A stretch of 64,000 nucleotides of DNA from Botryllus schlosseri (Eukaryota). Under the pieces are notes generated by a model that was given only the letters and a program-made list of their open reading frames with translations, searched no databases and was not told the DNA's origin. This document shows, piece after piece, positions 2,079 to 46,860 of the stretch (its first letter is position 1; each line of letters begins with the position of its first letter). The stretch covers positions 2,482,001-2,546,000 of the forward strand of contig CM119372.1 of the NCBI GenBank assembly GCA_051294905.1, read 5' to 3'. Position numbers and translations under genes: made by a program.

Positions 2079-5000
2079 TTATTCCCGATCCTCGCCGTCA
2101 GCATGCGATTCATCTTCTGTCATCTCGCTCACGAAGTCACTCCAGCGTTGCACGTCTAGACATGAAGTAAACCTAGCATCCTATCAGGGTTGTAATGACT
2201 CGAGTCATGACTCGACTCGAGTCTCGAATCACGATTTTTTGGTGACTCGACTTGACTTGAGTCATTTTGCAAATGCGTAAAATGACTCGACTCGGGTTAA
2301 TTTTTGTATTGACTCGACTTGTATTCAAGTCATTGTGCATGACTACAACCACGCCATATGACTCGAGATGATACTGGAAAATAGGGCCAGAAACTGTTAA
2401 AACTGACGAAAACTACTATATTATGAATGCGAGCCATTATATCACTCGAACAGTGTTGAAAAAATATGGTTGAACCGGTTTGAACTGAAAACTGATCAGT
2501 GAACATAATGACCTGGACTCGGACTCGAGTCAAAACACTATGACTCGGACTCGACCATCTACTGGCTGACTTTGACCCAAACTTGACTCGGTGGTGAATT
2601 GAAAATGACTTGACCTGAGTCGAGTCAAAACTATAAAAGTGAGATTGACTTGTAACTCGGAATCCTTTGCATCCGCGAGGTTTTTGAGAGATTCGAAATA
2701 CCTTACAAGGAATGTCCTGGTGGATGTGGATCACCGAGGAATATATAGAATGACAAATATCTGGTTGAAAATGTAATATTATCATGGTTTAAATAGCGAT
2801 CACTACTGATATGGTATTACCTGTAAACCTCCTGCTGAGGATAAATTTGCTCTGGACGATGTAAGGTAACGACGCAAATTGCCTCAAGATAGAAATATTT
2901 CAATGCTCTGAGGTATCTGAAATTTTGATTGCCATCCAAGGTATACCTATGGTTATTTTATCAGTTTTGATATTTCTTTAATAGTGTATACCTGGGCTAT
3001 CCATATCAAAACACCTCTCAAAAATCTTATCCGGCACGTTCTCTATAGTTCCATAGGCGGTCAGTAACCAAGCAATTCTATTTCTAGGAGTACCCAAGTT
3101 GGTCTTGCTTATATACTCGCATGATACCTATATTTGTAGTGTGATTAATCATTTTGCAGCATAGTCCCGAAGAAACAGGAATTAATCAACTCAACTCAAC
3201 CAAATCTTATTTTTGAAACTAATTACTTGAACTTGCAAAGGAAGCTGCGTCGCCTACAACTCAACGAAATCAGAGATATCCCACTCTCCCGACAAGAAGC
3301 TAAAACAACTGTCAAAGAACTAACTCGCCTAAAATGGATGAACGAAGTTGAGACAAGTGGATCCGAAAATCTCTAGAAGATAATAAACTCCGCACACGGG
3401 ATTTCGCCGCCAATAGGACTCTCAAGAAAGGGATCATTGATGCTGACACGACTTCAGACTGGGCGTTGTAAAGTGAACGGCCATTTACATCGATTACGTT
3501 ATCTCGACGAATGTCTTTGTACGACATGTGGCGTGACTGAAACGGTGGAGCATTTTGGCTTTAATGTAGCCTACTCGCTGTAACTTGCAGCGAAATTATT
3601 TAATGGATATATAGCAGAACGGAACCACGTGCCCATTGATATTGTAGCGGTACTCGATAACCGCTACACCATTTTATCAGTTTTCGAATATGTGTTCCTG
3701 ACCGTGAAGCAGCTTTAACCTAGTATATCAATCGGGAGGATATACTTATAACATTTACGCTTGGTGCAAAAGGCCATAGCTGCTAAACACGATAATCCCC
3801 ATATACACGGATAGCCTACATAGGCTACTTGAGTGGTTTTCCGACTTCTCATTTTTTAGTTCCCCTTGAAACAGTTTTGATATCTCTCGGAATTGTTTAA
3901 TTCTAATTTAAATTGGGTAGGAATTTACGGCGATACTTATACTTGATCTGTAGTAGCAACGCTGACTACTTTGACCACCAATGTATAGTAGCCTACATAA
4001 ATATACTGTACTGGTAATTTGAGTTGAAAATTACCATCATATTTCAATTGCAGTTATTTCTATTAGTGAGATGAGATGCTGATCCAATGGGTTTTAGTAA
4101 CACGGTATCCAGTCAATCCCGTTGCCCTTAACTTGAAGTTTGGCATTCAAGTTCGCACCTTCGTGTTGGTCTGGTATAGCGAGTAGTTGCGGGTTCTCGT
4201 CTTCGGTTTCGGCAGAATTTGAAAGGAAATTTTGGTCGAAATTCGACTCCGGCGTGTCTTCTTCGAAATCGTTGTCTGGCTGCGCAAGAGGTAACGGGTG
4301 CATGTTAAAATTATCGGTTAAAAGTCCCGGTCAGTGGAGATTGCATCTGACAACGTGCACGCCAGGCGTTCCCAACCTGTGTGCCGCCCCTCATTGCCAC
4401 CTTTTTCAGGGGTCATGGAGAAATTTGAAAAATTATCATTTCTATGAGTTTACTCTGCTATAGCTGAAGAAATAAACTTATAGTTAACAAAAATGATAGT
4501 ACAGCAATAAGCTAGTGCTTGATATTCAGTGTAATCTCCTCCCTCCACCCGTAAAGCAGATAATTAGGACATGACCAGAGCAAAACATGCTCAACCACCA
4601 CATTACATAAGTATGTATGATAGCTAATTATTGCACTGACATCTTTATTGTTTGTAGTAATTATATAATTCACCTTTCTAACTAGCGTCACTGCATTAAT
4701 CATTTATTCATATTTAACACAATGCTTCCCAATTGATTCAAAGATAGCAGAAAACTGGGGCTCATTGATTTTTCAAATTTTCAAAGGAAGCCACGTTGTG
4801 AAGAGGTTGATAAGCGCTGGTTAGGAAAAGCAAAGGATCTCTTGTCTCGGTCACAAAATCCATCCGCTCGCCTAATGTTAGCGATCACGGGACTATAAGG
4901 CTGTACAAGTGTACATCGTACGTTAGAAAACAGCAAGAATGCGTTTATTAATTTCCTTGATCCAATCTGGATGAAACCAATGAAAGCTTACCACTGGACG

Positions 5001-5295
5001 CGTGTTGTCTCCTAATCCCATCACCAGGCCCGGTAGTTTACATTTGGCGTATTTTTTGATAATTTTCTTTCCGTACCTGTAATTTCGAATGTGCAAAGCG
5101 ATGCATCAATTTTGCAGGACTGCTACACTCCGTTTCATACCTTTTAACCGTTCTTTTTACGACCCTTCCAACTCGTCTCACCCACTTCCTGCTTCTCCTC
5201 CTCCTCCTCCTCCGCCTTCTTCTCCCCCATCCACAGGACAAGTCGATAAGCATCATGCAAATTAACAGCAACGCAAGTGTAGCACGAAACTTCAT
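2079..5295 (-). CDS. Styelin-like poly-Arg cationic antimicrobial peptide precursor, gene 1 (145 aa, 4 exons)
   Basis: Exons 5295-5141, 5076-4992, 4279-4159, 2155-2079; all introns GT..AG, phases 2/0/1; open to TAA. Protein: MKFRATLALLLICMMLIDLSCG | WGRRRRRRRRRRSRKWVRRVGRVVKRTVKRYGKKIIKKYAKCKLPGLVMGL-G | DNTRPVPDNDFEEDTPESNFDQNFLSNSAETEDENPQLLAIPDQHEDVQRWSDFVSEMTEDESHADGEDRE. AATAAA at 1963-1968 (minus strand). Confidence 0.88.
2185..2666 (+). mobile_element. hAT-type MITE, GACTCGAGTC family A (3'-truncated), in gene 1 intron 3
   Basis: Starts CAGGGTTGTAATGACTCGAGTC with many GACTCGA/GAGTC motifs. Absent from unit B. A related partial copy lies at about 721-1005. Confidence 0.75.
3200..3820 (+). 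mobile_element. Non-LTR retrotransposon 3' fragment (I/Nimb-like clade) in gene 1 intron 3
   Basis: Translates to LTRLQTGRCKVNGHLHRLRYLDECLCTTCGVTETVEHF, a C-terminal zinc-knuckle-type motif. Absent from unit B. Confidence 0.7.
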
Positions 5296-44737: not shown

Positions 44738-46860
44738 TTATTGTTGTAGAAGTTGCACCAGATCCACTTCGTCGTGCCCGTCGCGATGGTGTTCCGAGTC
44801 TTCTTCGATGTCGCTGTTGTCCCCTTGATCGTACTCAGCCACCTCATCAGGGTCTACGCCTGCGTCTCGCATCGCTTGGTTTTCCTTCTCAATTTCAGCA
44901 ACAAGCTCGTTCCATTCATCTAGAAACGAGGAATGACGAATGAGCAATTAGAGAAGTGGTTCTTAACCAGGAGTAAGACTAGCCAGTATCAAGTCCTTGG
45001 CGGAGGTCAAGACGCACACCCGACTCACGCGGCAGAAATTTATGATATATATAATCATTCACTGATACTTTTTTGCATCGAGGGCTTTTTGCAACACGAC
45101 CCTTGATATAATGTAGCCTCTACGATTCAATACAGTGTCCGATTAAACGCAGCAGAAGCAGTAGGCTACAGTAACTATTCATTATAATCCTATTGTTTTG
45201 CGTAGAAATCCTGTGTTACTGGCTTAGTTTTTTAACACTGTTGTTGACGCACAGCTCATTACGCACACCAGTATTCTATGGTAACGGATGCGGCGTGTAA
45301 TGTTGTAGAGCAGTGGTTCTTAAACAGGGGTCCACCAGGTCGATATTAATACTTCAAGTTTTTGAAAGGTGTCCCGTCCCCGAGATTCACATAAGTTGTG
45401 TTGAAAACGCTATTGGGCCCAAGACCAGCCTTTGAGGGTGACTTGACAAAGTGCTGTTTTGATCGTGAATACGAGAAACAGTTCCTGACAGCTAAGGGGG
45501 TGCGAGCGCTAAAACTTTGGAAAACACGGTTGTAGAGTTATGTTTTTGTGACTCAGCGAACTGGGTTCACCGAAGGCTTGCAAATTAGCGTAAGGGTTTG
45601 ACAGGTCAGTAAACAGTAAGAACCACTGAAGTAGAAGAGGACGAAAAAAGTTTAAGTCATGCAGTGAGAGGTGTGCTACGATCGGAAACGAATTAAACGA
45701 TAGTGACTATCACAGGTGGCCAGTAACGAAGTAGCCTACTTCTACTTTTTCGAAGCAGGCTACCCAAGTAGGTATTTCTTTATGCAGCTACCATTTCCCC
45801 AGGATTGGGATTTCAGACTACTTCCAATTTTTCTTATTTCATTACCGGGGTTGTATAGGCAATACTGACCCTAGAATACGTGACTATAGTAGCCTACTTC
45901 CTTAGATATAGTTTTGAACTACTTACTTCCATCATTCTACTTATTGAAAGTAAAATATGAAATGAGTGCTTTTCATATTTCCGTTTTCTACTGATACTTG
46001 GTAAAATTCACGACTTTACTTCTAATTCTAATGAACTGCCACGACCCCTACTGGTGACGTGGACTTCGATATTTATGGGTAGCTAACATCTTTTTATACC
46101 TAAATATATATCGCATCGGTAATCTTTGTACAGTATGCTAGTGTCAGCAACATTTAATGCAATGAAAATGTGGCAGTTACCTGCAACTGGTGTCATCAAG
46201 TCCAATCCCTTACATCACCCTTGCTATTAGACCATAAAAAGCAGAGTTTGGCTCATTTGAACTGTGTCACTGGCCACTTAAGACATAGTCCCGAGTTTAC
46301 CTTCAGTGAGCTCCGGATATTTTTCCACGCCTGCCATGTTGTCTTCGTACGCCTGCATCAAAAGTTCAGGTTCGAATTCCATATAATTATTGTCCGCGCC
46401 GTCGAGAAGTTCCTGCAAGCACCAGGAAAAATTATGATAATGCCACTCGTGTTTACCGGAATTAGCGAATTCACTTCAAGTCGCATTTCGTACCTTCGGC
46501 ACTTTCTCGTCTCCCATGAACGCCCCAGCGCATTTTACTGCCTTGAATCCAGTTTTGAAGAGGTTCCTGGAATCAATCTCATGTTAACCGTTGAAAAATA
46601 GCGTTACGTCATCAATCTTACTTGTGTTTCTTATAAAAGTTGTAGCCCTTTTTGGCATACTTATAAACTCTTCCGCCGAATTTCTTGATGTATCGCCCAG
46701 TTCTTTTGATGAATCTCCCAACCCTTTTGAAAGTTCGCCTGACCCGGAATCTCCTCACGCTTCGAATCGCTCTGCGAAACCGGAATCTGCCCCACGACTC
46801 GGCATGGTCCACCAACACAACAGCCACGAGAAATGACGCTAGAATCACTCTCAAATGCAT
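44738..46860 (-). CDS. Styelin-like Arg/Phe/Lys-rich antimicrobial peptide precursor, gene 5 (201 aa, 4 exons)
   Basis: Exons 46860-46622, 46566-46494, 46412-46301, 44919-44738; phases 2/0/1. Protein: MHLRVILASFLVAVVLVDHAES | WGRFRFRRAIRSVRRFRVRRTFKRVGRFIKRTGRYIKKFGGRVYKYAKKGYNFYKKHKNLFKTGFKAVKCAGAFM-G | DEKVPKELLDGADNNYMEFEPELLMQAYEDNMAGVEKYPELTEDEWNELVAEIEKENQAMRD...DLVQLLQQ. AATAAA at 44658-44663. Confidence 0.9.

Follow-up and report, generated by a model that had tools for sequence, protein, structure and literature searches.

Botryllin is the sole antimicrobial peptide studied so far in Botryllus, the main model of colonial-chordate immunity. A synthetic 37-mer of botryllin kills bacteria and yeast at minimum inhibitory concentrations of 3.1–50 ug/mL, and granules of morula cells serve as the store of the propeptide and contain furin as well (PMC9966394). 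Herein, five genes within a 64,000-nucleotide stretch of Botryllus schlosseri DNA (assembly GCA_051294905.1, contig CM119372.1, forward-strand positions 2,482,001 to 2,546,000; the whole stretch is called the window) are compared with botryllin and other ascidian peptides. An earlier note, made from the letters of the window, had proposed that these genes encode long poly-arginine precursors of an expanded, styelin-related family. With a probability of about 0.7, they are best read as a divergent botryllin subfamily encoding stored precursors of cationic membrane-active peptides, with an antimicrobial role assigned by analogy with botryllin and Ciona peptides.

Styelin precursors consist of a 22-residue signal, a 31-32-residue peptide, a Gly amidation signal and a 26-residue C-terminal pro-piece, the layout on which the earlier note had relied, and the peptides carry bromo-Trp, 3,4-dihydroxyphenylalanine (DOPA) and hydroxylated Lys and Arg (PMC8659048). 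KKHK is present in styelins A and B (PMC8719109), and a KHK motif is described as common to botryllin and styelins (PMC9966394). Styelins A–E (Pfam PF17562) resemble the window genes in the succession of signal, basic peptide, Gly and C-terminal pro-piece, in the KKHK shared with gene 5 and in a Trp near the N-terminus. However, their 31-32 aa (amino acids) and 26-residue pro-piece stand against basic regions of 43-75 aa and tails of 65-103 residues in the window, where Phe-richness is found only in gene 5. A Gly between the peptide and the acidic pro-piece, with predicted amidation, occurs in all five window genes; by length, Phe content and Pfam score, the genes nevertheless fall outside a narrow definition of styelins. 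None of the sequence searches returned a styelin precursor. In the earlier note, the segments TLLG-D and EFQEFMQ had also been assigned to styelin C.

The order of signal, cationic and anionic parts is also found in the Ciona precursors Ci-MAM, Ci-PAP, KH.C1.640, KH.C7.94 and KH.S908.1, several of which have a Trp start and Arg runs, and KH.S908.1 has a Leu-Gly-Asp junction like the Gly-Asp of the window genes. Arg-rich Ciona peptides of that layout are antimicrobial and partly salt-resistant (PMC7387483, Tables 2-3). The likeness is one of layout: the Ciona signals follow another consensus, and the screen took precursors of 50-100 residues without Cys (PMC7387483), so that it would exclude the window type. 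Furthermore, halocidin and dicynthaurin of Halocynthia aurantium, both helical and found in blood cells, dimerise by a disulfide through the single Cys of each chain (PMC8719109; PMC10608444). Compared by description, they share the one Cys per chain with genes 1, 2, 4 and 5, but are 15-30 aa long and less basic.

Structure of the five-gene cluster and expression of genes 1-3

Six-frame motif scans and sequence reading located all five genes on the minus strand between window positions 2079 and 46860. In the models built from these coordinates, each gene has four coding exons, intron ends are GT..AG in 15 of 15 cases, and the phases are 2/0/1 in every gene. The reading frames are open and stop-terminated, with AATAAA at most 110 bases past each stop. 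An acceptor-like AG lies 1-22 bases 5' of the ATG in all five genes (ATGs at 5295, 17166, 22213, 42264 and 46860), and directly before the ATG in botryllin-type genes. Since it may mark a 5' untranslated exon or a spliced-leader site, "four exons" denotes coding exons only. These exons are listed below, each with the basis of its assignment.

Gene 1 exon 1, 5141..5295, minus strand: predicted signal, Trp-Gly-Arg10 head, start of basic helix; sequence and RNA junction to exon 2
Gene 1 exon 2, 4992..5076, minus strand: end of basic region, single Cys64, Gly-Asp; sequence and RNA
Gene 1 exon 3, 4159..4279, minus strand: acidic propiece, 121 nt; sequence and RNA
Gene 1 exon 4, 2079..2155, minus strand: end of acidic propiece, D-x-x-x-W motif, stop; sequence and RNA
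Gene 2 exon 1, 17024..17166, minus strand: predicted signal, Trp-Gly-Arg5 head, basic region; sequence and RNA
Gene 2 exon 2, 16887..16959, minus strand: end of basic region, single Cys60, Gly-Asp; sequence and RNA
Gene 2 exon 3, 14840..14960, minus strand: acidic propiece, 121 nt; sequence and RNA
Gene 2 exon 4, 13823..13899, minus strand: end of acidic propiece, stop; sequence and RNA
Gene 3 exon 1, 22074..22213, minus strand: predicted signal, Trp-Arg5 head, His-containing basic region; sequence
Gene 3 exon 2, 21753..21858, minus strand: basic-to-hydrophobic end, Gly-Asp, no Cys; sequence and RNA
Gene 3 exon 3, 20868..20976, minus strand: acidic propiece; sequence and RNA
Gene 3 exon 4, 20247..20317, minus strand: DEW motif, acidic end, stop; sequence and RNA
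Gene 4 exon 1, 42053..42264, minus strand: predicted signal, Trp-Gly-Arg12 head, Tyr/Lys-rich basic region; sequence
Gene 4 exon 2, 41621..41687, minus strand: end of basic region, single Cys84, Gly-Asp; sequence
Gene 4 exon 3, 41059..41173, minus strand: acidic propiece; sequence
Gene 4 exon 4, 40566..40675, minus strand: DEW motif, acidic end, stop; sequence
Gene 5 exon 1, 46622..46860, minus strand: predicted signal, Arg/Phe-rich head, long predicted amphipathic helix ending KHK; sequence
Gene 5 exon 2, 46494..46566, minus strand: end of basic region, single Cys92, Gly-Asp; sequence
Gene 5 exon 3, 46301..46412, minus strand: acidic propiece; sequence
Gene 5 exon 4, 44738..44919, minus strand: DEW motif, long acidic end, stop; sequence

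The precursors of genes 1-5 measure 145, 137, 141, 167 and 201 aa, respectively, and share one layout in all five cases: a 22-aa hydrophobic start, Trp, a basic region, a Gly-Asp preceded by hydrophobic residues, and an acidic tail. The first 22 residues form a predicted signal peptide with a basic start, about 13 hydrophobic residues and small residues at positions -3 and -1. From Trp23 to the residue preceding Gly-Asp, the basic regions comprise 51, 43, 53, 65 and 75 aa with net charges of +25, +20, +17, +27 and +28, recomputed values that agree exactly with those of the earlier note, and the acidic tails carry -21 to -29. The label "poly-arginine" suits genes 1-4, whose longest Arg runs are 10, 5, 5 and 12, but not gene 5, with a run of 2. 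Genes 1, 2, 4 and 5 have, after the signal, a single Cys close to where the basic region ends, whereas gene 3 has no Cys there. Gene 4 contains six Tyr, all adjoining Lys, gene 5 contains five, three of which adjoin Lys, and genes 1-3 contain one or two each; ten Phe occur in gene 5 and none in the other four.

Expression was assessed by comparing four sequencing runs with window positions 2050-22040, which cover 8 of the 15 junctions (those of genes 1-3 except intron 1 of gene 3). A bulk RNA run (X23) and a single-cell run (X21) were chosen by species label, and the other two runs are contig sets, taken to be RNA only by guess. All eight junctions examined were crossed by RNA reads, with CT..AC ends on the plus strand, at 97-231 reads per junction in X23 (12.9 million records) and 4-2980 in X21, and both contig sets agree with the junctions of genes 1-3. 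These three genes are spliced and expressed at a good level, and the co-oriented four-exon arrangement first proposed from the letters is borne out. At 13784-13854 (gene 2 exon 4 and 3' end), many X23 reads have differing letters and a 3-base gap, which would represent an allele or a paralog; X21 matches the window.

The likeness of the five genes to one another exceeds chance, because their pairwise alignments reach z-scores of 4.9-36 against 150 region-wise shuffles and nonsynonymous divergence (dN) lies below synonymous divergence (dS). By simple counting over few codons, dN and dS in the basic region are 0.28 versus 1.31 for genes 1 and 2, and 0.11 versus 0.42 for gene 3 and its upstream copy (see below). 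Protein-level constraint on the basic region is thus seen in these comparisons.

Kinship to botryllin and extent of the family

The genome searched comprises 495.5 Mb, in which C2 denotes the contig of the window and C11 the contig bearing botryllin. The published botryllin primer (PMC9966394) has an exact match on C11 and a one-mismatch match 55 kb away, and its reversed control has none. Two genes were modelled at these sites:

Botryllin gene, C11:9115174-9117557: 158 aa
Second botryllin gene, C11:9170798-9172319: 158 aa, 55 kb from the first

The modelled C11 botryllin differs by one residue from the GenBank protein (OP851480), and the published precursor length is also 158 aa (PMC9966394). 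The Ab2 epitope in Table 4 of that paper has a peptide end unlike both C11 genes and the GenBank protein. Identity of botryllin with one of the five window genes was ruled out, as primer and epitopes map to C11.

The botryllin gene shares with the window genes four coding exons, phases 2/0/1, a 22-aa MKF-type signal, a long basic region, an acidic propiece and a near-neutral proprotein. In addition, its signal is followed by a Trp-Gly-Arg5 head like the heads in the window, its exon 3 has 121 nt as in genes 1 and 2, and KHK closes its exon 1; within the window, this ending is found in gene 5 only, with a KKY variant in gene 4 and no counterpart in genes 1-3. In contrast, botryllin has Lys-Asp at the junction and no Cys in the basic region, whereas the window genes have Gly-Asp and, in four cases, one Cys. 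Its basic region comprises 47 aa at +17, against up to 75 aa and +28 in the window, the two groups lie on different contigs, and their acidic propieces do not align. Four coding exons with phases 2/0/1 are found in both botryllin genes and in five of five further modelled genes, one of which lacks exon 4 in the stretch examined.

Three Styela clava proteins, LOC120342944, LOC120343457 and LOC120343518 (P0007, P0014 and P0038), have the same signal, a W-G-R5 head, a basic region of 51-53 aa and an acidic tail. Compared at the protein level, their propiece is of the botryllin type, unlike that of the window genes. Botryllin and these relatives have 47-62 aa at +16 to +23 after the signal, so that the length and strong basicity of this region do not set the cluster apart.

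Alignment-based searches that returned botryllin and S. clava proteins were circular, with botryllin present in both alignments and two S. clava proteins in the second, and were replaced by a profile test. The profile was built from ten non-window sequences (seven Botryllus genes, one of them partial, and three S. clava proteins), and shuffles kept the composition of each region. The five window proteins score 24.6-41.1 bits, a level reached by 0 of 300 shuffles for each gene. The signal and head (first 29 residues) alone score 14-31 bits, again reached by none of the 300 shuffles in any of the five genes, the head of gene 5 being a variant without an Arg run. For the basic region, the scores of genes 1-5 were reached by 0, 131, 2, 0 and 0 of 300 shuffles. 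An unrooted tree of 15 proteins places the five window genes on the same side of a branch (100/99), with the caveat that the branch of gene 5 is long and the alignment is poor in the tail columns.

These comparisons show, at the sequence level, that the five genes are relatives of botryllin in signal and head, and the basic region gives a mixed result across the five. Their acidic tails show no likeness to that of botryllin beyond composition; since the tails are not recognisably related, kinship rests on the front half and the exon structure. A narrow botryllin subfamily, defined by the conserved helical acidic propiece common to botryllin, its paralogs and the S. clava relatives, does not include the window genes. 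By sequence, they make up a separate, divergent subfamily within the botryllin family; their acidic tail is unrelated, and four members have one Cys. The relation to styelins claimed in the earlier note holds through botryllin rather than through the styelin motifs cited there, and not in the narrow sense of length, Phe content and PF17562.

Searches of the genome with exon 1 (expectation value E up to 1) gave 9 matches of 10 scored, 13 of 16, 3 of 5 and 27 of 30. The matches of a search with botryllin exon 3 include both botryllin genes and one match with an internal stop. No second copy of gene 5 exon 4 was found in the genome. The loci outside the window fall into the following groups:

Further botryllin-type genes, C2:17.35-17.41 Mb, C5:19.2-19.3 Mb, C12:11.11 Mb, C15:3.16 and 6.78 Mb, and C181: matches to exon 3, five of them modelled
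Upstream three-gene copy of the gene 1-3 group, C2:2233800-2272151 (L010, L011, L013, L014): 210-250 kb from the window group
Tandem W-G-R5 loci, C4:13.52-13.63 Mb (L065, L067, L085, L086): six exon-1 matches

Altogether, the matches point to at least 22 related loci genome-wide in two subfamilies, including the five window genes and the three upstream copies. This count is a lower bound, in which some loci are broken and one is perhaps a duplicate contig; the C181 gene may duplicate a C5 gene. Two weak matches at C5 19.41 and 19.52 Mb have no Trp-Arg head and were left out.

The upstream copies are 71-82% identical to the window genes in gene-bearing stretches, which rules out an uncollapsed haplotype and marks them as old paralogs. 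One copy shows a 12-nt repeat within exon 2 along with a GC donor. The next carries, where exon 1 ends, an insertion of 2 kb with inverted ends; its donor is lost and its exon 4 shifted. In the third copy, exon 4 was looked for and not found. An old duplicate cluster with decaying copies would fit birth-and-death evolution. In the C4 tandem, the three loci that were read encode a signal, a W-G-R5 head and a short Tyr/Arg peptide, followed by Gly-Asp and an acidic tail; a single exon holds the start of all of these. Their product could be an amidated peptide of 14 aa, whereas cleavage at the Arg runs could release tiny tunichrome-like Tyr peptides.

The expansion proposed in the earlier note is thus real, and the five genes are only part of it. 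Among published accounts, "one described Botryllin paralog" on chromosome 11 is mentioned in PMC13635237, while the botryllin study left the existence of paralogs open (PMC9966394), a question on which the two C11 genes bear. A literature search that excluded subscription journals, genome annotations, theses and peptide databases found no account of the window genes or of a botryllin gene family, and unseen supplements may list them. The window genes are an undescribed divergent subfamily within an unrecognised botryllin-like expansion; the kind of molecule is well known and no new mechanism is revealed. The earlier interpretation was right in kind but overstated the novelty. For tunicate immunologists, at least 22 loci would provide a defined effector repertoire for single-cell atlases.

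Proposed processing, function and alternatives

In the proposed mechanism, the 22-aa signal would be cut before Trp23 and the precursor secreted. While stored, probably in granules of blood cells as has been reported for botryllin, the precursor would have its basic part masked by the acidic tail. Cleavage at Gly-Asp would then free the peptide, the Gly being converted into a C-terminal amide as in styelins; on anionic microbial membranes, the peptide would adopt an amphipathic helical fold and break these membranes. Computed after signal removal, the net charge of each precursor is near zero (-6 to +6 in 14 of 14 full-length members), with about +16 to +27 in the basic part. The best 18-residue hydrophobic moments are 0.52-0.75 in the window genes versus 0.58-0.60 in the two botryllin genes, and the amphipathicity of genes 1 and 5 was reached by 11 and 3 of 1000 shuffles, respectively. 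For gene 5 exon 1, AlphaFold2 predicts one helix at residues 33-78. The window genes may serve peptide chemists as natural, possibly salt-tolerant templates.

The extent of the mature peptide depends on the fate of the Trp-Arg head. Each window peptide contains two to nine R-X-K/R-R sites, and a cut after the last leaves 28-55 aa at +11 to +18, so that the long mature peptides of the earlier note, although their basic regions are indeed long, had been stated with too much certainty. Three 37-residue windows of botryllin have the published mass of 4.35 kDa, of which residues 33-69 also fit the charge of +11. In addition, botryllin itself reaches only 16.9 bits against PF17562, in an alignment that begins at residue 33. 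Because mass, charge and this alignment agree, the published 37-aa botryllin is most likely residues 33-69, without the first ten residues including the Trp-Gly-Arg5 head, which raises doubt over the start of mature botryllin. On the other hand, all 17 aligned sequences share an unchanged Trp and one unchanged Arg, and some Trp-Arg-headed precursors have little else that is basic. The invariance of the head, its share in the charge balance and the head-only precursors would argue against simple disposal. Retention of the head in mature window peptides of 43-75 aa is judged slightly better than an even chance, and trimming by a furin-type enzyme to the shorter products somewhat under one.

The single Cys of genes 1, 2, 4 and 5 makes disulfide-linked dimers plausible, as in halocidin and dicynthaurin. 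A more far-reaching proposal, rather unlikely in our estimate, treats the head as a retained working module. The peptides would then have 43-75 aa and up to +28, four of them would form disulfide homo- or heterodimers that mix paralogs, cell entry would proceed as with oligo-arginine carriers, and published botryllin would be a truncated form. This proposal was made because the head is near-invariant in about 20 Botryllus genes and the Styela relatives, heads unrelated secreted peptides in this genome and makes up almost the whole basic part of amphioxus-type precursors. If it is true, the window peptides would be among the longest and most basic linear ascidian defence peptides.

Several observations weigh against the reading as stored antimicrobial precursors of botryllin kinship. 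With the Pfam Styelin model PF17562 (27-bit cut-off), none of 12 window exon pieces matched, exon pieces rather than spliced proteins having been scanned, and a genome scan with the same model gave seven matches, none over the cut-off and none in the window. The basic region of gene 2 does not rise above its own shuffles (131/300), the profile scores of the acidic tails of genes 1-5 were reached by 157, 126, 36, 42 and 90 of 300 shuffles, and the genome search with botryllin exon 3 (E up to 0.1; 14 matches among 16 scored) found nothing in the window cluster. Across the members, which are related sequences, basic and acidic charge match weakly (Pearson r 0.56, p 0.04; Spearman p 0.22), the amphipathicity of genes 2, 3 and 4 was reached by 70-188 of 1000 shuffles, and the gene 5 fold model is of modest confidence (predicted local distance difference test, pLDDT, 69; predicted template modelling score, pTM, 0.29). 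Furthermore, no sign of positive selection was seen in the three pairs compared, transcription and splicing of genes 4 and 5 are predictions, and antimicrobial activity and blood-cell origin of the window peptides are inferred.

Part of the same evidence can be read in other ways. As phenoloxidase substrates or polycations, the products might cross-link, seal wounds, harden the tunic or condense extracellular traps, with Tyr converted into DOPA. This is improbable as the main role, and genes 1-3, with only one or two Tyr, speak against it, as do the amphipathic pattern and the amidation Gly, which fit soluble membrane-active peptides. The Tyr adjoining Lys in genes 4 (6/6) and 5 (3/5) do form a pattern that resembles mussel adhesive proteins. 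Moreover, styelin D carries DOPA (PMC8659048), and botryllin, which occurs in extracellular traps, has been suggested to be a substrate of phenoloxidase (PMC9966394). A structural role and microbe killing can coexist. Another proposal, with quite a low probability, is that the Arg head makes the peptides cell-penetrating cytotoxins against eukaryotic cells, such as parasites, fouling organisms or non-self colonies in allorejection, bacterial lysis being secondary. In genes 1 and 4, the longest Arg runs (10 and 12) match synthetic oligo-arginine carriers in length. Morula cells are effectors of allorejection (PMC9966394), and styelins are haemolytic and cytotoxic (PMC10608444). However, the Arg runs double as furin-type sites and may be removed, gene 5 has no such run, and the proposal itself is inferential.

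Precursors of signalling or chemokine-like peptides cut by convertases would likewise combine a signal peptide with numerous sites for cleavage at basic residues and a Gly for amidation, and gene 4 exon 1 has a weak, below-cut-off Pfam match to GPR15L (E 0.024). This match is explained by the signal peptide and basic residues, the five window peptides share no conserved short amidated core, and botryllin, the closest characterised relative, is an antimicrobial peptide, which makes signalling highly improbable. Protamine-like sperm nuclear proteins are not known to carry a secretion signal; the hydrophobic predicted signal with its cleavage-site pattern in five of five genes is unlike a nuclear protein, even though the very high Arg content might suggest DNA binding. 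The repeat-rich region might equally suggest chance gene models, against which stand the eight of eight examined junctions seen in RNA and the same structure in botryllin and five further modelled genes. Both ideas are refuted for genes 1-3 and barely conceivable overall.

Wider searches and other features of the window

When 1.84 billion representatives were searched with a profile, 21 proteins matched at E up to 0.001, and names were looked up for 10 of them. Among these 21 are botryllin (part of the query), two uncharacterized botryllin-type S. clava proteins, one amphioxus protein and unnamed Trp-Arg-headed records, and none belongs to the window subfamily. The combination of signal, Trp and Arg run also heads proteins with other bodies (P0002 of Branchiostoma belcheri, P0015, P0017, P0019, P0020, P0004, P0011, P0012 and P0013). 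In the amphioxus type, hardly any basic peptide follows the head, and in the others it is followed by an EF-hand tail or by Cys-rich cores; most of the records are unnamed. Nothing exceeded the Pfam cut-off in the 12 window exon pieces, where HemY_N, GPR15L and DUF2981 are composition matches. Gene 5 exon 1 matched none of 52 candidates among proteins of 140-2000 aa, which is weak evidence, and the ESM Atlas gave no usable match with gene 4 exon 1. A fold model of botryllin (pLDDT 61) had no match in the PDB at E 0.001 or better.

Between genes 3 and 4, the minus strand at 28366-33545 contains what we take to be exons of a Shaker-like voltage-gated potassium channel, with S4 Arg repeats and a GYGD pore. 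Arrays of 9-10-base units at 8652-8896 and 9431-9875 are inverted and flank about 500 unique bases, like a foldback element. Furthermore, a dispersed repeat occurs in inverted orientation at 15305-16199 and 32473-33342 (78% over 920 bases), and an imperfect palindrome of 650 bases lies at 52841-53494; both are probably transposon remains.

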